Shown here: positions 16,502 through 28,464 of the stretch, in pieces
How positions within the stretch are numbered: position 1 is the stretch's first letter
Layout of the letters: each line of letters opens with the position of its first letter
IMG/VR virus record: IMGVR_UViG_3300044676_004445
Coordinates: 1-33,135 of that record
Source of the DNA: a virus
Lineage: Duplodnaviria; Caudoviricetes
Reading direction: 5' to 3' (one strand)
DNA: 33,135 nt
Program-made: the position numbers and the translations under genes
The notes under the pieces: model-generated
Databases searched by the model: none
Told to the model about the DNA's origin: nothing
The model's input: the letters and a program-made list of their open reading frames with translations, nothing else

Positions 16502-16540
16502 AGCGTTGCCCCCTGCTTCGGCGGGGGGCTTCGCTGTTTC
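16502..16540 (+). terminator. intrinsic terminator-like hairpin after the capsid gene
   Basis: GCCCCCTGC-TTCG-GCGGGGGGC 9-bp stem with cUUCGg loop, extended by AGCG/CGCT; weak U tract. Confidence 0.75.
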
Positions 16541-16545
16541 TGGGG

Positions 16546-16554
16546 TGCTATTAT
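16546..16554 (+). promoter_or_regulatory. candidate extended -10 promoter (TGCTATTAT) for the accessory fibre cassette
   Basis: TGnTAnnnT immediately after the terminator; GGGAG RBS follows. Confidence 0.55.
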
Positions 16555-16577: not shown

Positions 16578-16943
16578 ATGATGAGTATTTCTAATTATGC
16601 TGAGAACAAGTTGCTGGATGCGGTTGGTGGCACTTCGTTTAGTGTGACGACCGCTTATTTGCAGTTGCATTTGGGTGATCCTGGTGAGGATGGTACGGCT
16701 AATGCTGCGGGTGAATCAACTCGTAAGTCGTGTGCGTTTGATGCTGCTGCGTCTGGTTCGATGGCTTCTTCTGCGACTGTTGAGTGGACGAATGTGTCTA
16801 CGACTGAGACGTATTCGCATTGGTCGTTGTGGGATGCTGCGTCGGCGGGTAATTGTTTGTGGTCTGGGGCGTTGGCTTCGTCTGCTGCTGTGACGGCTGG
16901 TGATACGTTTCAGATTACGAGCTTGACTTTGACGCTCGACTGA
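16578..16943 (+). CDS. small beta-rich virion structural protein (fibre/spike-associated), 121 aa
   Basis: SNYAENKLLD...YLQLH.GDPG...SHWSLWDA.SAGN.LWSG.L...GDTF pattern of a widespread phage structural family. Confidence 0.7.
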   Translation: MMSISNYAENKLLDAVGGTSFSVTTAYLQLHLGDPGEDGTANAAGESTRKSCAFDAAASGSMASSATVEWTNVSTTETYSHWSLWDAASAGNCLWSGALASSAAVTAGDTFQITSLTLTLD

Positions 16944-17920
16944 TGGCTACTAATTTTCCGGGGTCTGCGGATAGTTTTACGAATCCTTCGTCGGGTTCTT
17001 CGTTGTCGTCGCCTTCTCATGCGGATCAGCATGCGAATGTGAATGATGCTGTTGAGGCTATTGAGACTGCGCTGTTGGATGGCGCGCCTCTGCATATTGA
17101 TGACACGAATGAGCGTGTCGGTATCGGCACGACCAGCCCTAGCGCACCTTTAGAAATCAATGGTTCACGCGATACCGAATTGTTGAGGTTGTCTGCGCCG
17201 TTAAATGCCGCAAATCAAACCAATTACATTACGATGGTGGACTCCCAAGACGGAGGGATTGTTGCCGCTATCGGTCTTGGTTCAGATGTTGGTGGTGCTA
17301 ACGATAACGATGGCGGTATTGCGTTCCGCACAACAACTGCGGCAAACACTTCGATTCCTGCTACTCGCATGTACATCAACAAAGATGGCGATGTTGGTAT
17401 TGGGACTACCAGCATGACCAACCAGTTTACGGTGTACAACGGCACTTACTATTCGATTATTGGTCGTAACGACTGGGGATTGCGTTCCCCAGGAACCTAC
17501 GCACTCTCAACATCCAACGCCGCAAACGTCTATATTTCTTCTAACGGTACGTTCTACCGTTCCACCTCGTCAGCAAAATACAAAACTGATGTTGAGGACA
17601 TTGATACGTCTGCGGCAGATGTTGTGTTCGCTTTGCGCCCCGTATGGTTCAGATCCACGTCACCTCACGATCCCGAAGGCTGGTCTTACTATGGTTTGAT
17701 CGCTGAAGAAGTGGCTGAGGTTGACCCTCGGTTGGTGTCGTTTGGTGCTGGAGAGGATTGTGGTTGCGATTTTGACGCTGACCATGTGGCCGAGTGTTTG
17801 ACGGAACCTGAAGGTGTTTACTATGACCGACTAGTGCCACACCTGATTAGCGTGGTGCAACGTCAGCAGGAACAGATTGATGCGTTGACTGCTCGTATTG
17901 AAGCGTTGGAGGCTGTCTGA
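16943..17920 (+). CDS. fibre/spike protein 1 with C-terminal intramolecular chaperone (peptidase S74-like), 325 aa
   Basis: VGIGTTSP repeats; SSAKYKTDVEDI, LRPVWF, YGLIAEEV, VYYDRL and a terminal coiled coil. Confidence 0.85.
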   Translation: MATNFPGSADSFTNPSSGSSLSSPSHADQHANVNDAVEAIETALLDGAPLHIDDTNERVGIGTTSPSAPLEINGSRDTELLRLSAPLNAANQTNYITMVDSQDGGIVAAIGLGSDVGGANDNDGGIAFRTTTAANTSIPATRMYINKDGDVGIGTTSMTNQFTVYNGTYYSIIGRNDWGLRSPGTYALSTSNAANVYISSNGTFYRSTSSAKYKTDVEDIDTSAADVVFALRPVWFRSTSPHDPEGWSYYGLIAEEVAEVDPRLVSFGAGEDCGCDFDADHVAECLTEPEGVYYDRLVPHLISVVQRQQEQIDALTARIEALEAV

Positions 17921-18786
17921 TGTCAACGAACTTCCCTACTAGTGTTGATGCGTTTACGAATCCTACGTCGGGTGACACGTTGGATAATCCGCCGCACGAT
18001 CAACAGCACGCAGATATTAATGATGCGATGGAAGCGGTACAAACCAGCCTGTTGGATGGTGCACCGTTACATATTGATGATGCGAATGAACGTGTCGGTA
18101 TCGGCACAACCAGCCCTAGTCAAACTCTTCAACTTGGTGAAACATCTGGGGGGTTGGAGCCTGCCATTGACTTAGTTTCTAATGGTGGGCGCACCATTAG
18201 GATGAAAGCCGCTGACTCTGGGAACTTTTTGACAGTGGGTTCTGCTACTGCTCACTCGTTTGCTTTACAGACGAACAATGTTCGTCGCTTAACGGTTGAT
18301 TCGTCTGGAAATGTCGGTATCAACGACACCACGCCGTCGTACAAGTTGGATGTCAACGGAGACATCAATGCCACAAGCGATGTGCTGGTCGGGGGCAGTT
18401 CTCTGCCGAGAGGGTTCGCTGGTCAGGATGGCAACCAAGTATCTCTTGCCCTAACAACAACAGCAACATTGAGGTTGTCTACAAGTGTAACGACGGTTGC
18501 TGGTCGTCGTTACCTGTGTGGTTTTTCTGGATTTACTTACGCAACATCAACATCCATGCTCGCTATCGCCTACATGCGTTTTGAGGGTACTTCTATTCAG
18601 AACTGTCAAGTTTCGATTAGTTCCAGTATGGATAACGGCAACCTAAGCATGTCTCGTATTGTCACCGCTGGGTCAACTGGGACAACAACGTTGGAATTGT
18701 ATGGACAAACCTCAACAGGAACTTCTTATATCCGAGCATCTACTGGGTCAGTAAGACCAGTTTTGTACTGTATAGATTTAGGGTGA
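17920..18786 (+). CDS. fibre/spike protein 2, 288 aa
   Basis: First ~67 aa paralogous to fibre 1; GNVGINDTTPSYKLDVNG shaft motif; different beta-sandwich-like tip. Confidence 0.8.
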   Translation: MSTNFPTSVDAFTNPTSGDTLDNPPHDQQHADINDAMEAVQTSLLDGAPLHIDDANERVGIGTTSPSQTLQLGETSGGLEPAIDLVSNGGRTIRMKAADSGNFLTVGSATAHSFALQTNNVRRLTVDSSGNVGINDTTPSYKLDVNGDINATSDVLVGGSSLPRGFAGQDGNQVSLALTTTATLRLSTSVTTVAGRRYLCGFSGFTYATSTSMLAIAYMRFEGTSIQNCQVSISSSMDNGNLSMSRIVTAGSTGTTTLELYGQTSTGTSYIRASTGSVRPVLYCIDLG

Positions 18787-19019
18787 TAAGCATGTTGGTT
18801 ATCTGTAATTTGCAGGGTTCCGAAGTTGAAGATTTTGACCGCCAGATGCGGTGGCATCGTAATGCATTTCTGAACAACTCTGATTGGACTCAGATGCCTG
18901 ACAGTCCTCTGACCGCTGAACAGAAAGAAGCATGGGCTACCTACCGTCAAGCCCTACGGGATTTCCCTGCAACGTGGGTTCCTGCCGAGACAGCCGAGTT
19001 CCCTGAGGTGCCAGCATGA
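18783..19019 (+). CDS. tail fibre assembly chaperone (start at GTG 18783 or ATG 18792)
   Basis: RNAFLNNSDWTQMPDSPL...W.TYRQALRD.P...FP motif of phage tail assembly chaperones. Confidence 0.85.
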   Translation: MISMLVICNLQGSEVEDFDRQMRWHRNAFLNNSDWTQMPDSPLTAEQKEAWATYRQALRDFPATWVPAETAEFPEVPA

Positions 19020-19606
19020 CCACTAATTTTCCGTCGTCGCTTGATTCGTTTACGAATCCGTCTGCTACTGATGCGATGGATTCTGTGACGGTTCCTCACG
19101 CTACTCAGCACGCTGATTTGAATGATGCTGTGGAGGCACTTGAGGCGAAGGTGGGTGTGGATGGTTCTGCGGTCACCAGCAGTTTGGATTATCAGTTGAA
19201 CGCCATCGGTGCCTACACTGCCTACACGCCCAGTTCAACTGGTGGTCTGACGTTGGGTAACGGCACGATTCAAACCTTTTACACAAGAATAAACGATTTT
19301 GTTCACACCTACGGTTCGGTAAGTTTAGGTTCAACGTCGTCAGTCGCTCCCTATGTTGATATTGCGCTACCCGTTACTAATGCTACGAGTACGTTTGAAT
19401 CGCCTACTGGCAATGCGTTGTTTTGGGATAGCAGCATGTTCATTTGGAAAGGCACAACAATTAGTGTTGGCACTACAACGGTCAGGTTGATAGCCGAACT
19501 AGCAAGCGGTACTTATACGAGATACGCAGATTTGACCGCAAATGTTCCGTTCACATGGGCAACCTCTGATGCGATGGTTTGGAACATTATGTACAGGGCG
19601 GCATGA
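19016..19606 (+). CDS. fibre/spike protein 3, 196 aa
   Basis: Shares the TNFP.S.D.FTNP...H..QHA..NDA.EA anchor; C-terminal AYTP...TLGNGT...YTRIN...LPV...PFTWATSD tip domain. Confidence 0.78.
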   Translation: MTTNFPSSLDSFTNPSATDAMDSVTVPHATQHADLNDAVEALEAKVGVDGSAVTSSLDYQLNAIGAYTAYTPSSTGGLTLGNGTIQTFYTRINDFVHTYGSVSLGSTSSVAPYVDIALPVTNATSTFESPTGNALFWDSSMFIWKGTTISVGTTTVRLIAELASGTYTRYADLTANVPFTWATSDAMVWNIMYRAA

Positions 19607-19607
19607 C

Positions 19608-19769
19608 ATGGTAACCGTAACTTGCACTAATGAAGCGTGCGTATCACACGCGATTGAATGGAACTTTGCAGGCAATCCTGATGTTGTCGAATGTGGCGGT
19701 TGTCACGAAATGTTGACACCAACCGATCTTCGTGATGACCCGCCCATGCCACAACTACCACCGTTCTAA
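19608..19769 (+). CDS. 53-aa Cys-containing protein (CTNEAC...CGGC), possible chaperone or tip partner of fibre 3
   Basis: ATG 1 nt after the fibre 3 stop; four Cys; Pro-rich tail. Confidence 0.6.
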   Translation: MVTVTCTNEACVSHAIEWNFAGNPDVVECGGCHEMLTPTDLRDDPPMPQLPPF

Positions 19770-19780
19770 GTAGGTAGCGG

Positions 19781-20857
19781 ATGGCACGCCTATACGACAC
19801 CTCCAGCGACTACCAAGAACACATTGACTACTCGGGCGAACCCGCAGACGTAGACACCTACGACTCAGACCTCACATACGACCGAACAAAACTCTCATAC
19901 GACGGCGACCCAATCGACCTCGACCAGGGCTACGCGTCCACCTCGATCACCTACGCATCCAACGTCACCGGATACAACGGCAGCCGCACAATCGACACCA
20001 CCGCCACCGGAAGCGGGACCGGCGGATCAACCACAACAGGTGTCCGCATCGCGTTCCGCACCGCCACAGGCGACGGGGCAGGAACCTCCAACGCAACCGG
20101 GCTACACGTCGCACCCCGAACCGCAACAGCAGACGGCACAGGCACCTCAACCAGCAGCGGCCTACACATAGCCCCACGGACAGCAACCGGCAACGGTACA
20201 GGCACATCAAACAATGCGATCCTGCACAAACTTCTTCGCACCGGCTACGGCACAGGCGGCGCAACCACCGGCGACACCGCTATCGGGCTACACAAACATT
20301 TACGCACCGCAACCGGCACAGGCGACGGCACATCTGCCGTCGTACAGGTACGCATCACGTTCGCTACAGGCACAGCGTCCGGCACAGGCACCTCGTCTAC
20401 TACCGGCCTGCACATTGCGCCACGCACAGCCACAGGCTCAGGTGACGGCACACAATCCGCTACCGGTCTGCATATCGCACCACGCACAGCAACCGGAGCA
20501 GGCACCGGAACCGACAGCTCGCAAGGGCTACACATCGCGCCACGCACCGCATCCAACACTGGCACCGGGGCAGACATCCCAGCCACCTGGACAAAAAGCC
20601 TCATCTTCAGGCCACCCGCACAAGACGACTTCCCGTTTGCCGAATACCCGCCTCGAGGAAAAGCACACCGCCTCTACGGATTCTTCGCACCAGGAGTACG
20701 AGCTCGCAACGTGTACAAGCTGACCGACGGCACTTACACCAACGTCGACCCACGCAACGACAACCTCGTCGTCAAAACCTATCTAGGCGCACACGAAAAC
20801 TTTGTGACCGCAGAAGAAAAAGCCGATCTAGTAGCAGCAGGATACGAGGTGACCTGA
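19781..20857 (+). CDS. repeat-containing virion protein (three Tyr triads, ten ~20-aa Gly/Thr repeats, C-terminal domain), 358 aa
   Basis: LHIAPRTATGxGxGTxxxxG repeats; C-terminal domain homologous to the next gene. Confidence 0.8.
   Translation: MARLYDTSSDYQEHIDYSGEPADVDTYDSDLTYDRTKLSYDGDPIDLDQGYASTSITYASNVTGYNGSRTIDTTATGSGTGGSTTTGVRIAFRTATGDGAGTSNATGLHVAPRTATADGTGTSTSSGLHIAPRTATGNGTGTSNNAILHKLLRTGYGTGGATTGDTAIGLHKHLRTATGTGDGTSAVVQVRITFATGTASGTGTSSTTGLHIAPRTATGSGDGTQSATGLHIAPRTATGAGTGTDSSQGLHIAPRTASNTGTGADIPATWTKSLIFRPPAQDDFPFAEYPPRGKAHRLYGFFAPGVRARNVYKLTDGTYTNVDPRNDNLVVKTYLGAHENFVTAEEKADLVAAGYEVT
19982..20587 (+). repeat. ten tandem ~60-bp coding repeats
   Basis: Residues 68-269: nine 20-aa units and one 22-aa unit; degenerate at the DNA level. 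Confidence 0.85.
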
Positions 20858-21144
20858 TGGCAACATTCACACCCCCAACCGACAACCTATACAACCTTTC
20901 AGACTTCGACGTACAAGAACCGTTCACCGCTGAACGACGACTCGCCTACTCATTCCTACGGCACTACGCACCGCTACCTCGAGGACGAAACATCTTCAAA
21001 CTTGCTGACGGCACCTATGTAGAGAACGAACCAGCAGACAGGAGCACCGTCACCGTCACCTACTACGGCGGTCACGACCACGAAGTTGACGCCACAGAAG
21101 CATCAGCACTCACAGCAGCAGGCTACGGCGACTATATTTCATAG
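20857..21144 (+). CDS. hypothetical protein, stand-alone paralogue of the upstream C-terminal domain, 95 aa
   Basis: F.PP...R.RN.[YF]KL.DGTY...P...TY.G.H...V...E...L.AAGY shared with residues 276-358 of the upstream protein. Confidence 0.8.
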   Translation: MATFTPPTDNLYNLSDFDVQEPFTAERRLAYSFLRHYAPLPRGRNIFKLADGTYVENEPADRSTVTVTYYGGHDHEVDATEASALTAAGYGDYIS

Positions 21145-21146
21145 CC

Positions 21147-21413
21147 ATGAAACACCGTGAAACACACCCGAACCTCGACGTAGATGATTGTTTCGGTTGC
21201 CGGATCGCAGGAGTAGCATTCGCAGCCTCATCGATGCCTTCCCGCAAGATCTCAACAAACGACATTGATGCTACGGAACGCCGCTGGTCAAAAGACATGG
21301 ACGCCTACAAACGGTTGAAACAGGACGGGTTACAGCCGGCACAAATCGATGGTGCAGCAAACATTGAGAAGAAAGCAGATCACCCGTCTCAGGTAGTAAC
21401 AGGGATTCTGTAG
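21147..21413 (+). CDS. hypothetical protein with H...H...CFGC motif, 88 aa
   Basis: Coupled ORF; possible metal-binding N-terminus. Confidence 0.7.
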   Translation: MKHRETHPNLDVDDCFGCRIAGVAFAASSMPSRKISTNDIDATERRWSKDMDAYKRLKQDGLQPAQIDGAANIEKKADHPSQVVTGIL

Positions 21414-21426
21414 TACAATTGGCGCA
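21414..21426 (+). promoter_or_regulatory. candidate -10 (TACAAT) giving a leaderless transcript for the basic-protein cluster
   Basis: TACAAT at 21414-21419, 6 nt before ATG 21426; no SD. Confidence 0.55.
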
Positions 21427-21683
21427 TGGCTGTGTACCGTGGCAAAAACGTGGAGCTGAACTCGCCTCGTCGCATCCGCAAGGGTGAACCAGGGTACGGC
21501 CGAAAGAAGTCTGTTGTGTTCGTCAAGGACGGAGCAAAAGTTAAAAAAGTAATGTACGGCGATCCGAACATGAAGATCAAGAAGCAGGATCCTGCCCGCA
21601 AAAAGTCATTTGATGCACGTCACAACTGTGATAATCCGGGTCCGAAAACAAAAGCCCGGTACTGGAGTTGTAAGGCATGGTAG
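21426..21683 (+). CDS. small basic phage protein (RKKSFDARHNC...ARYWSCKAW type), 85 aa
   Basis: Recognisable V.YGDPNMKIK...RKSF.ARH.C...ARYWSC motif of small aquatic-phage proteins. Confidence 0.8.
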   Translation: MAVYRGKNVELNSPRRIRKGEPGYGRKKSVVFVKDGAKVKKVMYGDPNMKIKKQDPARKKSFDARHNCDNPGPKTKARYWSCKAW

Positions 21684-21838
21684 CGAAGAAAGCGTTTTGG
21701 GATAAACCAAACCCTGTCAAAAAGTCGAAAAAAATGTCTCCTGCACAGGTGAAAGCGGCTAAAGCTCGAGCGAAGAAAGCAGGCCGGAAGTATCCGAACC
21801 TAGTTGATAACGCTGCAATGGCGAGAAAGAAGAAGTGA
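21677..21838 (+). CDS. Lys-rich microprotein, 53 aa (MVAKKAFWDKPNP...AKARAKKAGRKYPNLVDNAAMARKKK)
   Basis: Translated by hand; overlaps the upstream stop; 18 K/R. Confidence 0.75.
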   Translation: MVAKKAFWDKPNPVKKSKKMSPAQVKAAKARAKKAGRKYPNLVDNAAMARKKK

Positions 21839-22959: not shown

Positions 22960-24810
22960 ATGTCGCTGATTACCTACACCACACCGTTCACGGGTGGACC
23001 GTCGTTCTATACAGGTATTTCTGGTGCCTCCGATTTGGTGCCACACATTTTCCCGGTGTCGATTGATGGTCGTCCGTACATGCTTGATACTGCGTCTGGC
23101 CGGTATGCCCGCACGTTTGAGGCTCGGTTGAGGGATTCGGTTGACCAGTCTGATGTGCCTGGTGAGGCTGCGATTAACCCGCAGGGTTTGTGGAGGCGTG
23201 GTCAATCGTCTTGGCATTTCGGTTTCAACCAGAAGTATGGTGATTTGCCTGATAGCAATGTGGAGCGGTTTGAGGCTTCGTTGGGTGTGGATGTTTGGAC
23301 TGAGGGCGAACTCACGTTGTTGAATGATGTGAAGGTGTCGTCGTCTACTGCTGGCACGAACCTGTTTTTGGCTGTTGTTGGTGACGAGCTGTGGCACACC
23401 GATGGTTCTGACATCAAGTATTCGACCGATCCGTTTGCGGCTTCGCCTGTTTGGTCAACGATTCCTGGTACTGGCACGATTCGTGACATTCAAAGTATCG
23501 GCGGTGACGCATACGTCGTTTATGCCGGTACTGGTTCAACGCAAGGCATCGTCAAGGTTGACGGCGGGACACACACATTAGGTTCGGCTACTGCTTACGG
23601 TGTCCAGTTTGACAAAGTTGGTTACGCCAAAGGCCGTCTGGTCGCTAGTTCCACTACGTCCAGCAAACTGTGGTTTGACCCGTCCGGCAACAACCCGACC
23701 GCAGACTACACGCATCCTGACGGCAACTTCCGTTGGGTAGGTTTCGCAGCAGGCCAGAACGCCATCTACTGTGCAGGGTACTCCGGCCAAAAATCGTTAA
23801 TCTACAAGGTGACTATCCAGTCTGACGGCACCCTTGACACACCGGTTGTTGCTGCTGAACTGCCGTTCGGTGAACGTGTGTACAGTCTCGCCGGATATTT
23901 GGGATACATCCTTATCGGCACTAACGAGGGTTTGCGGTACGCCTCGGCTGATGCTGACGCAAACCTTGTTCTCGGTCAAACCATTGAGGGACCGAACCCG
24001 ATTCTGTGCGCTGACGGTTACCAACAGTATGTTTGGTGCGGTGTCACCGATTACACGGGGGATTACACGGGGCTTGGCCGTATCGACCTGTCACATTATG
24101 TTGATGTCAACGTCCCTGCCGCAGCCCCGGATCTGATGTACGAGGGTCAGGGCGACGTACAGAGTGTTGCTACGTTTGATTCTAAGCGGGTGTTCACGGT
24201 GTCAGGTGTCGGTGTGGTGGTTGAAGACACAGCGAACCTCATGGCTACCGGCTACTGCGAGACAGGTACTTGGCGTTGGGGTATCCCCGATCCGAAGTTC
24301 TTAGCGTTCTTTGACCTTGAGTATGAAACGCTAAACGGCACCATTGACGTTGACTACGCCTACGACGGTGGGAACTATGAGCGTCTTGGCACAGCAAACT
24401 TGCAGGGTGGCACCCTCACTTCGTTGTCTGGTTTAGATGACCAGTTCCGTCAAGCCAAATTCAAGGTCACGTTGAACCGTGACAGCGTTACCGCATCCGA
24501 GGGTCCGGTGTTGGCACGTTGGCAGGCACGGGCTGTACCGTCACCGTCACGTTCAGAGCTGTTCCAGATCCCTGTGTTGTTGCATCAACGCATTAACCGT
24601 TTCAACAGGGAATACAACGTGGATGTTGAGTTTGAGTTGAACAAACTGCGGGATCTGATTCACAACCCTCGCATCATCCAGTTCCAAACAGGTACGTCTG
24701 TCTACAAGACAATCGTTGAAAGTGTAGAATGGATACCTGTTGACCAACCCAACGACGACTATATTTTTGATGGGACTGCGACGGTGACGTTGCGCTCCCT
24801 TGTGGAGTAA
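22960..24810 (+). CDS. putative tail nozzle (tail tubular protein B-like, beta-propeller), 616 aa
   Basis: QSSWHFGFNQ, SLGVDVWTEGELTLL, beta-rich blades; size and position. Confidence 0.65.
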   Translation: MSLITYTTPFTGGPSFYTGISGASDLVPHIFPVSIDGRPYMLDTASGRYARTFEARLRDSVDQSDVPGEAAINPQGLWRRGQSSWHFGFNQKYGDLPDSNVERFEASLGVDVWTEGELTLLNDVKVSSSTAGTNLFLAVVGDELWHTDGSDIKYSTDPFAASPVWSTIPGTGTIRDIQSIGGDAYVVYAGTGSTQGIVKVDGGTHTLGSATAYGVQFDKVGYAKGRLVASSTTSSKLWFDPSGNNPTADYTHPDGNFRWVGFAAGQNAIYCAGYSGQKSLIYKVTIQSDGTLDTPVVAAELPFGERVYSLAGYLGYILIGTNEGLRYASADADANLVLGQTIEGPNPILCADGYQQYVWCGVTDYTGDYTGLGRIDLSHYVDVNVPAAAPDLMYEGQGDVQSVATFDSKRVFTVSGVGVVVEDTANLMATGYCETGTWRWGIPDPKFLAFFDLEYETLNGTIDVDYAYDGGNYERLGTANLQGGTLTSLSGLDDQFRQAKFKVTLNRDSVTASEGPVLARWQARAVPSPSRSELFQIPVLLHQRINRFNREYNVDVEFELNKLRDLIHNPRIIQFQTGTSVYKTIVESVEWIPVDQPNDDYIFDGTATVTLRSLVE

Positions 24811-26615: not shown

Positions 26616-27322
26616 TGGCACGCTACATCGGATACGACAAAACAGCACGCATGAAAATGGCTGGCCTCGAAAAGCTGGTTGACCTGCTGGAAGCCGAGTT
26701 CGGTTTGTGGAATAACGGCACATACGGTGTCCGCAAAAAGCGTGGCAAAAACTCTTACAGCGTTCACGCAACAGGCCGTGCCGCCGACCTTTCTTGGCGT
26801 GGAGGCAAGTACCGTGGCTCAGGCAACTATGAGGATGCTGTCCGCATGATGGATTTCCTCGTAGAAAACGCTGCCGTACTTGATATCCAAGCCGTGTTCG
26901 ATTATTACCCGAAGCCGTGGGGTCGTGGCTGGAAGTGTGACCGTAACGGGTGGCGGGTGTATAACCGTAAAGCGTTCTCTGGTTCACCTGGCGGTGATTG
27001 GGTACACGTCGAGATCGGATTGAAATTCTGTCACGATCCAGACTATTACGAGCAGAAGATTGCTGAACTGTTGGGCAACAAGAAGCCTGCCCGCAAACCA
27101 GCGAAGAAAAAGACACCGGAGTATCCAGGCAAGTCGTTGCGTAAAGGCTCACAGGGCGACGACGTGAAACTCGTACAAGGTGTTGTTGGTGCAACCCAAG
27201 ACGGCGACTTCGGTCCGAAGACCGAGAAGTCCGTGAAGGCTTGGCAGAAAAAGAACGCAGATTGCTGTGGTCCAAGTGACGGGATTGTCGGTCCTAAAAC
27301 TTGGGGCTGCATGTTTGGCTGA
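26615..27322 (+). CDS. endolysin: Zn-peptidase (M15-like) domain plus peptidoglycan-binding domain, 235 aa
   Basis: SVHATGRAADL...DWVHVE (H-x6-D...H); LRKGSQGDDVKLVQ...DGDFGPKTE..VKAWQ...DGIVGPKTW. Confidence 0.88.
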   Translation: MARYIGYDKTARMKMAGLEKLVDLLEAEFGLWNNGTYGVRKKRGKNSYSVHATGRAADLSWRGGKYRGSGNYEDAVRMMDFLVENAAVLDIQAVFDYYPKPWGRGWKCDRNGWRVYNRKAFSGSPGGDWVHVEIGLKFCHDPDYYEQKIAELLGNKKPARKPAKKKTPEYPGKSLRKGSQGDDVKLVQGVVGATQDGDFGPKTEKSVKAWQKKNADCCGPSDGIVGPKTWGCMFG

Positions 27323-27324
27323 CG

Positions 27325-28464
27325 GTGCGCCGTGGCCTTCTTACTTGCAGCCAGCTAGGTTTCGTCGGCCTATTCTTCCTGTGCCTACTGGCACCCTTCC
27401 AGGCGTACGCCGATTCGCTCACAATTACCGAAGAAACCGACGTCTACTTCACGCTCGACGAGCAAAGCCTTGTCATCATCTACGGCAACAGCAACGAAAA
27501 CTGTGAGAACGTCACGACCGACCCGTACCTGTGGCTGTACGACGACAACCCTGAATCAACCGGCGAACTGATCGCACAAGACGACGACAGCAACCACGGA
27601 CAAGGACAGTGCGTATCCGCAAAGCTGTACGTCACACTCGAGGCTGGCGACTACCGTTTACGCGCAGGCTACTGCTGCCAACAACTAGGAACAGGCAACA
27701 CGCCTAGTTGGGGAGACGGATCCTACGAGCTGGTGTCTGAGATATTGTTGTCCACAGATACCACTACATCTAGTACCACGACGAGTAGCACAACCACTAC
27801 ATCTAGTACCACGACAACAACGGAGCCGCTGCCATCAACAACAACATTGAGCACTACGTCAACCACGCCATCAACCACGGTATTGGTGGCCCCATCTACA
27901 ACTTCCACCACGACAACCACCACATCGTCAACAACGACGACATCTGTACCGGCACCGACGACTGTCCCAACTACGACGACGACCACCGTCGCTACTTCCA
28001 CAACAACTACGAGCACGACAACTACTACGTTGTTACCGACGACAACATCGTCATCGACAACAACGGTCGCACCTACCACGACGACTTCAACTATCCCACC
28101 GACTACAAGTACGACAAGCACAACAGTCGCTCAGACGACCACGACGACAACGCTCCCCCCAACGACTACCACGTCGAATACGACTACGTCGTCCACCACG
28201 ACGGCTGTTCCCACCACATCAACGACAACGATTCCTGCCGTCACAACCACAACCCTTCCCCCACCACCACCAAATGACGCACCCGTAGAACAAAAAGAAA
28301 CGTTCGAAAAACAAGTCGACGTCTACTCAACGCCTGGCTACGACGACTATGTGCCAGCCGGATCAACAATCAGCGTGGAGACTCGAAGGACGGTCATTGC
28401 TGCGACTGCTACAATAGTATCTGCCGTACCTACTATCCCAGCTCGCCGGAGGACCCGACGATGA
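27325..28464 (+). CDS. secreted/membrane-anchored protein with a PPC-like domain and a long Thr-rich stalk (start GTG 27325 or TTG 27301)
   Basis: Signal peptide ending AYA; DPYLWLYD...LIAQDDDS...LEAGDY domain; ~170-aa Thr/Ser/Pro tract; weakly hydrophobic segment plus RRRTRR tail. Confidence 0.75.
   Translation: MRRGLLTCSQLGFVGLFFLCLLAPFQAYADSLTITEETDVYFTLDEQSLVIIYGNSNENCENVTTDPYLWLYDDNPESTGELIAQDDDSNHGQGQCVSAKLYVTLEAGDYRLRAGYCCQQLGTGNTPSWGDGSYELVSEILLSTDTTTSSTTTSSTTTTSSTTTTTEPLPSTTTLSTTSTTPSTTVLVAPSTTSTTTTTTSSTTTTSVPAPTTVPTTTTTTVATSTTTTSTTTTTLLPTTTSSSTTTVAPTTTTSTIPPTTSTTSTTVAQTTTTTTLPPTTTTSNTTTSSTTTAVPTTSTTTIPAVTTTTLPPPPPNDAPVEQKETFEKQVDVYSTPGYDDYVPAGSTISVETRRTVIAATATIVSAVPTIPARRRTRR

Follow-up and report, generated by a model that had tools for sequence, protein, structure and literature searches.

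Organization of the cassette

The window analyzed in this study is the complete 33,135-base virus record IMGVR_UViG_3300044676_004445. The system under study is a cassette at positions 16,578 to 21,144, which encodes a small 121-amino-acid (aa) protein, three fibres sharing an N-terminal domain (the TNFP anchor) and a 358-aa hub protein with tyrosine triads. We propose that it builds an accessory chain fibre on which the three fibres are docked. According to Pfam and PHROG scans, the cassette follows the terminase, portal and capsid genes, which stand in this order. All features described here lie on the plus strand. A GC-rich, terminator-like hairpin follows the capsid gene (16508..16529, RNAfold -20.1 kcal/mol), and hairpins are present at the equivalent place in homologous loci. 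At 16546..16554 lies a promoter-like extended -10 element (TGnTAnnnT); among 107 distinct upstream regions of homologous loci, 78 have it, with 7.1 expected from shuffles. A generic scan listed neither element. An earlier note on this DNA had assigned the cassette a candidate promoter of its own behind the capsid terminator and had set it apart from the main tail fibre; the hairpin and the -10 element agree with the first claim, and the second was also supported.

The first gene (16578..16943) encodes the 121-aa protein. Fibre 1 (325 aa, 16943..17920) consists of a TNFP anchor of subtype C, a shaft and a C-terminal S74 intramolecular chaperone (PF13884, above cut-off), and has tail-fibre matches in PHROG. 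Fibre 2 (288 aa, 17920..18786) carries an anchor of subtype B and matches the tail fibre family phrog_9942 with E 1e-7. It is followed by a 78-aa tail-fibre assembly chaperone (18783..19019; PF16778, 60 bits against a cut-off of 26.6). Fibre 3 (196 aa, 19016..19606) has an anchor of subtype A and, according to its Atlas model, a knob-like tip; the nearest models were unnamed viral proteins (template-modelling (TM) score 0.65-0.72), and the adenovirus knob reached a TM score of 0.47 only. A 53-aa cysteine-containing protein (19608..19769) without a family in Pfam or PHROG is likely accessory to fibre 3, and a similar small gene follows a fibre gene in locus L365. The hub gene (19781..20857) and a gene for a 95-aa protein (20857..21144) complete the cassette. 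The open reading frames of the earlier note were all found in place and the parts it had listed are present; it had overlooked the identity of the 121-aa protein and the two small genes at 18783-19019 and 19608-19769.

The 121-aa protein and the repeats of the hub resemble a whisker chain fibre

The 121-aa protein matched PF23140 with 94 bits against a cut-off of 27 and PDB entry 8JOU with E 2.6e-8, as well as 9C39 and 9MT4. These matches identify it as a whisker of the Gp80 family, the bead of fibre I of phage GP4. In Bas63, whisker dimers wrap the rope as beads on a string, and the rope completes their beta-sandwiches (PMC12609058). Fibre I of the Ralstonia podophage GP4 has five dimers and a separately encoded rope. 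In the Pseudomonas podophage A1002, 11 dimers sit on a fibre-dock domain, mainly on residues 243-468 (PMC13730344), and division of this stretch by the number of dimers gives about 20.5 residues per dimer.

The hub protein matched phrog_23524 with E 4e-74 and has 635 homologues. It contains ten repeats of about 20 aa (R-T-A-T-G-x-G-x-G..., 19985..20602), as the earlier note had described; they begin at residues 69, 93, 113, 133, 153, 175, 194, 215, 235 and 255 and are 19-24 aa long. Across 772 intervals in homologous proteins the repeat period was 20, which fits the A1002 residues per dimer, with no sequence match to any solved rope. A Gp80 gene accompanied the hub gene in 309 of 309 loci with a capsid gene in view. 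Given that the first gene of the cassette encodes a Gp80 whisker, the ten repeats are most likely the docking rope of a chain fibre of the GP4/Bas63/A1002 type, with about one whisker dimer per repeat, so that ten dimers would be threaded on the rope of the window.

The earlier note had taken the repeats for a bare stalk or ruler, in which case Gp80 would decorate the head separately. The PHROG label of the Gp80 family, "head protein", and the missing sequence match to a solved rope would fit that version. Described structures have Gp80 homologues threaded on ropes, the period equals the A1002 figure and Gp80 was present in all of the 309 loci, so that a free stalk appears most improbable, and the repeats are probably a rope of a described architecture.

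The C-terminal domain of the rope (20603..20857) is a candidate virion anchor, and the 95-aa protein is a free copy of it (38% identity over 87 aa, E 2e-13), which confirmed that the terminal domain is duplicated as the next gene. The free copy appears dispensable, because it was detected after only 151 of 193 distinct ropes. The model of the 95-aa paralog (predicted local distance difference test 89) has an alpha/beta fold. Foldseek gave no match in the PDB, and nothing was found there at a Z score of at least 5. The best score was Z 4.4 with a root-mean-square deviation of 2.1 over 44 residues for YqbF (2hjq); the C-terminal domain of lambda gpFI (2lsm) reached Z 2.2, and the Atlas score of 0.82 for the likeness to gpFI and YqbF is at chance level. 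Lambda gpFI was proposed to bind the prohead (PMC4856287), and the weak likeness in the model (Z 2.2-4.4) only hints at head binding by the base domain. The 95-aa domain also has a fold relative in Streptomyces phage HaugeAnator. A 15-fold collar formed by five ropes and ten free domains was rejected, as the free copy was undetected for 42 of 193 ropes and the fold is not Ig-like.

Homologues of Gp80 were also seen in 640 Mycobacterium phage records, where they are mostly unannotated. In Mycobacterium phage Silverleaf (L555:2810-4378), a minor tail protein is encoded upstream of the Gp80 homologue, and its repetitive-looking N-terminal half may be a rope. One locus (L512:5285-6525) has capsid, Gp80 and an anchor gene followed directly by non-structural genes; it lacks the genes for rope, adaptor and nozzle-like protein, through deletion or misassembly.

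Tyrosine triads at the rope tip and TNFP anchors of the fibres

The N-terminus of the rope has exactly three motifs of the form Y-x5/6-Y-x5/6-Y-x-G, as listed in the earlier note: T1 (Y5/11/17, 19793..19837), T2 (Y27/33/40, 19859..19906) and T3 (Y51/58/65, 19931..19981). No further tyrosine precedes residue 156. Three triads within 70 residues are beyond chance, since none of 20,000 shuffles of residues 1-70 contained two or three triads and 446 contained one. The triads are distinguishable. T1 showed 5/5 spacing in 34 of 34 three-triad ropes, and T2 always carried an Arg or Lys (basic residue in 23/23). The heptad (6/6) spacing of T3, found in 29 of 34 cases, is also that of single-triad ropes (29/30).

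The three fibres have residues ~1-50 in common, and fibres 1 and 2 share residues 1-72 at 68%; the tips do not align, in agreement with the earlier description of a common anchor with unrelated tips. Anchor columns were invariant over 58 sequences. A monomer model of the anchor showed an extended arm and a helix at residues 24-45 with a low predicted TM score (0.44); a fold search with this model gave no match, and the anchor profile had no credible match in the PDB or Pfam. His26 and His30 are invariant (window 17018-17032) and stand one helical turn apart, so that they could form a metal site on a trimer axis.

All of the 30 distinct loci with three anchor genes had one each of the subtypes A, B and C, in the gene order CBA (19 loci), ABC (10) or ACB (1). 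Loci with a single anchor had subtype C in 37 of 37 cases. The tips differ in family and in length (111-485 aa), and 26-29 tip sequences per anchor subtype fell into 24-26 clusters. The DNA between anchor and triad, which encodes the tips, must thus be constantly replaced. Anchor patterns matched about 1,600 IMG/VR stretches.

We also observed a type of gene encoding only an anchor of 75-78 aa, followed by separate genes for small fibre modules (L178:5973-6209). Such anchor-only genes were also present in L072, L089, L164, L214, L228, L280, L288, L323, L324, L446 and L552. Their arrangement suggests that the plug can serve as an adapter to a further fibre set.

The number of triads matches the number of anchor genes

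We fetched 456 loci. Together with the window, a rope was called in 442 of 457, and the 319 with Gp80 upstream and an intact tip were reduced to 163 distinct cassettes. With a loose, untuned pattern, the number of triads equalled the number of anchor genes in 149 of these, and 13 of the 14 misses had a different aromatic motif, the second class described below, which the loose pattern had picked up. In the tuned pattern, each of the first two tyrosines must be followed by a residue that is small or polar; it gave equal counts in 162 of 163 cassettes (triads/anchor genes: 0/0 in 101, 1/1 in 39, 2/2 in one, 3/3 in 21 and 3/1 in one). Counts agreed in 176 of 177 loci when a full rope and a downstream marker were required, and in all clusters at 70% identity except L365. 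A quick tree was built from 88 rows of Gp80 plus C-domain that were left after thinning. On this tree the presence of triads changed 13 times, as did the presence of anchors, and both agreed in 11 of 11 independent pairs (p~0.001). The covariation of triad and fibre numbers, which had been suggested as a check, was thus found. In L041, the rope has a triad at the tip and a second one in the middle, and two anchor genes flank the rope, one on either side. Because motif and gene numbers were equal in 162 of 163 cassettes, each motif likely acts as the socket for its own swappable host-binding fibre.

Anchors and triads outside the rope family

A further 97 loci were fetched by the anchor, and 65 distinct ones lie outside the rope family. 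A triad was present in a gene within 3.5 kb of the anchor gene in 31 of the 65 and none was farther away; the background was 0.13 per 7 kb, and a few of the calls are doubtful. Seventeen of these triads lie at the N- or C-terminus of a tail-protein family that is non-homologous to the rope, several members of which match phrog_5313. The triad scaffold ended within 36 nt of the anchor gene in 16 of 29 cases, and L552 showed two triads and two anchors.

L531, L534, L538, L548, L509 and L552 have genes with rope and triads and a different rope C-terminus, with Gp80 confirmed in L534 and L552. This gene adjoins the terminase gene in L534 and L538 and is fused to a long second repeat region in L552. 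A contig of a Propionivibrio metagenome-assembled genome (L475:7604-10809) encodes, next to lysis genes, a whisker-sized small protein without Pfam match, together with a TNFP fibre and a rope-like protein that bears a Tyr/Phe triad, which suggests that the module also occurs in a proteobacterial prophage.

The matching numbers could in principle reflect linkage only. In that case the 5' end of the rope gene would move with the fibre genes as one recombination block; glycans or the capsid would be the targets of the triads, and the fibres would be attached at another site. Sugar binding is common among aromatic motifs, the genes are adjacent, and 34 of the 65 outside loci have no triad near the anchor gene. 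Linkage alone is insufficient to explain the match, since it survives the constant replacement of the intervening DNA, the set of subtypes is fixed, the gene order is shuffled and L041 is matched through its internal triad and downstream gene. Triads furthermore recur on non-homologous scaffolds beside anchor genes, and the 101 cassettes without anchors all have Gp80 and capsid genes, yet gained no anchor genes. We consider an explanation by linkage only to be very unlikely.

Proposed docking of the fibres

The Gp80 identity, the repeat period, the matching of the counts, the three fixed anchor subtypes and the hypervariable tips are established. We consider it quite probable that every Tyr triad at the rope tip is the docking site for a single fibre, bound through its N-terminal TNFP anchor. 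The cassette would build an accessory chain fibre, in which Gp80 dimers are threaded on the 358-aa rope at roughly one for each 20-aa repeat and the three tip triads hold one fibre anchor each. The fibres themselves are presumed to be homotrimers, because the window encodes the S74 chaperone domain in fibre 1 (PF13884) and an assembly chaperone (PF16778) after fibre 2. Since a triad consists of three units of 6-7 residues, each led by tyrosine, it is plausible that one triad binds one trimer in a pseudo-three-fold manner and that each unit contacts one protomer. T3 would pair with anchor C, and T1 and T2 with A and B in either order. The C-terminal domain would fix the rope to the head or neck, and the fibres would add binding to the host surface at a reach of about 200 residues, apart from the main tail fibre.

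Triads and anchors may also bind with another geometry: several ropes could each give a triad to the same trimer, or a heterotrimeric hub of anchors A, B and C could sit on the three triads. Such a hub would fit the fixed A+B+C set, heterotrimeric fibres exist in mycobacteriophage Mysterious (gp35/36/37, PMC13252515), and strict counting is violated in L534 (two triads, one anchor gene) and L538 (one triad, two anchor genes). The described ropes, in contrast, bear their beads as single chains, a single triad suffices with a single type C gene in 39 cassettes, and the tips of the three fibres are unlike in family and length. The S74 chaperone in fibre 1 also speaks for homotrimers, in which this domain works. 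A different geometry is thus unlikely, and docking of one trimer by each triad is the best reading and likely correct.

Several points weigh against this reading. All of its support comes from comparative genomics. The rule of the tuned pattern was set post hoc, after inspection of 13 false calls, and the untuned pattern gives the lower figure of 149/163. A triad hidden Markov model, which never scored zero-anchor ropes above 0.8 bits, matched in only 132 of 163 cassettes because it under-called T2 and YNQ-type triads; it was rejected as a counter for being too subtype-specific. The loci were chosen non-randomly by tip type, so that class frequencies are uninformative, and co-transfer of the adjoining triad and fibre genes inflates the covariation. 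Searches recovered no locus for the two ropes with two-triad tips (P0004, P0012), and the rope is without a solved relative by sequence in the PDB. L365 has three triads and one anchor gene; judged by eye, this gene reads like a fusion of anchors A and C, i.e. a deletion or an assembly collapse across the repeated anchor. Besides L534, also L538 and L458 deviate (1/2). The 34 outside loci without nearby triad include a large-genome group (L499, L508, L511, L520, L523, L541, L547), which has the TNFP anchor gene and neither triad nor Gp80 in view. Among outside loci with ample flank, 22 of 40 had no triad, and a search of whole contigs for triads and Gp80 was negative for five of five large-genome loci, with records that are 44-71% complete and no positive control. 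More than half of the outside loci lack a nearby triad, so the anchor may also bind something else.

Further candidate sockets

The aromatic motif that the nozzle-like protein carries at its N-terminus (window 22960-23025) recurs once or twice at rope tips in L050, L053, L170, L183, L198 and others. A profile built solely from N-termini of the nozzle-like gene matched 129 of 133 triad-less ropes and one of 55 triad-bearing ropes, with one match in shuffles. The motif is a candidate for a second socket class, and since cassettes with it have no extra fibre genes, such ropes may load the main tail fibre. In Streptomyces phage Immanuel3, gp39 (L554:2471-2857) is weakly homologous to the base domain of the rope and ends in three Phe-Gly-His units, and the tailspike-like gene after it, gp40 (L554:2858-4519), has a different N-terminus. 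The Phe-Gly-His units may represent a third type of socket, here in a phage that has been cultured.

In a broader view, to which we give about an even chance, fibre attachment in aquatic phages follows a portable code of linear motifs, in which the three triad types, with their different spacings and charges, are orthogonal sockets for the three anchor subtypes. Whisker ropes could then receive triads at the tip or mid-rope, and tail proteins of unrelated kinds at either terminus. Other anchors would be served by a second motif class, which excludes the first and is the one shared with the nozzle-like protein, and possibly by a third, the three Phe-Gly-His units in cultured Streptomyces phages. 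Such a code could be likened to a cohesin-dockerin system for multi-adhesin virions.

Comparison to known systems

In common with GP4 fibre I (gp80, 8JOU), the collar whiskers of Bas63 and Sf14 (9MT4, 9C39), A1002 (PMC13730344) and VP1, the window encodes a bead from the Gp80 family. It probably also shares with chain fibres a separate rope that offers some 20 residues to each dimer; the GP4 rope is likewise a separate protein. The neck fibre of A-1(L) is another bead chain, built of trimers (PMC10966104). The accessible descriptions report no trimeric fibres on the rope, whereas the ropes of the window family bear 0-3 triads at the tip or in the middle, matched by fibre genes. Described chain fibres are rooted in an Ig-like collar or nozzle, whereas the base domain of the rope in the window is modelled as alpha/beta.

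In branched systems of receptor-binding proteins (RBPs) (KP32 gp37/gp38, G7C, CBA120; PMC13352976), several RBPs share one attachment point, as proposed here, by means of a conserved N-terminal docking peptide, and their specificity domains are swappable. The anchors of the window are alike in this, although the motif itself is different. These systems have as their socket a folded branching domain of the T4 gp10-like type, borne by a primary RBP (PMC13352976). In the window, a linear motif of about 15 residues would take this role, on a rope that is not an RBP; it seems to come in three orthogonal subtypes and to be transferable to tail proteins of unrelated kinds. Neither the hub nor the fibres had a Pfam or PHROG match to the gp10-like branching domain, and the cassette is therefore not a member of these systems. 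Its function would rather resemble that of branched RBP systems, with a whisker rope as the base and a portable linear-motif socket.

A single chain grips an N-terminal trimeric fibre interface, as in our proposal, in the loop of E217 gp45 (PMC10329688) and in the pseudo-trimeric claw of the Mysterious DTP (PMC13252515); in E217 gp45-gp46, one loop sits in the trimeric N-terminal helices of the fibre (PMC10329688). These systems have one fixed site per baseplate subunit, and the accessible parts of the reports mention neither tandem or variable numbers of sites nor a Tyr-heptad motif. Further literature for comparison is available (bioRxiv 10.64898/2026.02.16.706137). A literature search of a library with few subscription papers, in which the motif letters themselves were not used as query, found no description of the TNFP anchor or the Tyr triad. 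The statement of the earlier note that it knew of no described system with such an architecture holds for the tip with its triad sockets, the new half, and fails for the whisker and rope, which are the known half.

Neighbouring genes and cultured relatives

The closest cultured relatives of the capsid protein are in Streptomyces phages of the Beephvirinae (43-45% identity), which also have homologues of the adaptor-like, nozzle-like and main-fibre genes downstream of the cassette. Streptomyces phages of the Beephvirinae have podovirus morphology. Based on this relatedness, we infer an actinobacterial host and a short tail. The nozzle-like protein, the N-terminus of the main fibre and the capsid had no PDB match by sequence, so that the names nozzle and adaptor reflect gene order and size only. 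Immanuel3 and HaugeAnator share homologues of the capsid, adaptor, nozzle-like, main-fibre and phrog_24600 proteins and, weakly, the C-terminal domain of the rope; a scan of nine Immanuel3 genes revealed neither Gp80 nor rope repeats, and neither a TNFP anchor nor a Tyr triad. A tblastn search of 50,697 deposited phage records with anchor and rope matched nothing, and no cultured carrier was found.

Three small conserved genes follow the cassette (window 21147-21838) and match phrog_24600 (with a Cys pair), phrog_7595 and phrog_34011. The products of the latter two are very basic, and the three genes possibly encode internal DNA-binding proteins. A 387-aa protein encoded after the endolysin gene (window 27301-28464) has a long Thr/Ser-rich, mucin-like tract and no family match in Pfam or PHROG.

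Significance

We regard the system as real and well supported by comparative genomics. If the proposed docking is true, it would provide a function for an abundant family without convincing Pfam or PDB match, and the number and wiring of accessory fibres could be read from the sequence. The socket of about 15 residues and the trimer plug of about 50 residues, in three candidate orthogonal versions, would be a minimal set of parts for studying the docking of trimers on asymmetric peptides. The cargo of whisker ropes in uncultured aquatic phages, probably of actinobacterial hosts, would also be explained, and host-range work on these phages would be redirected to as many as three additional hypervariable fibres.

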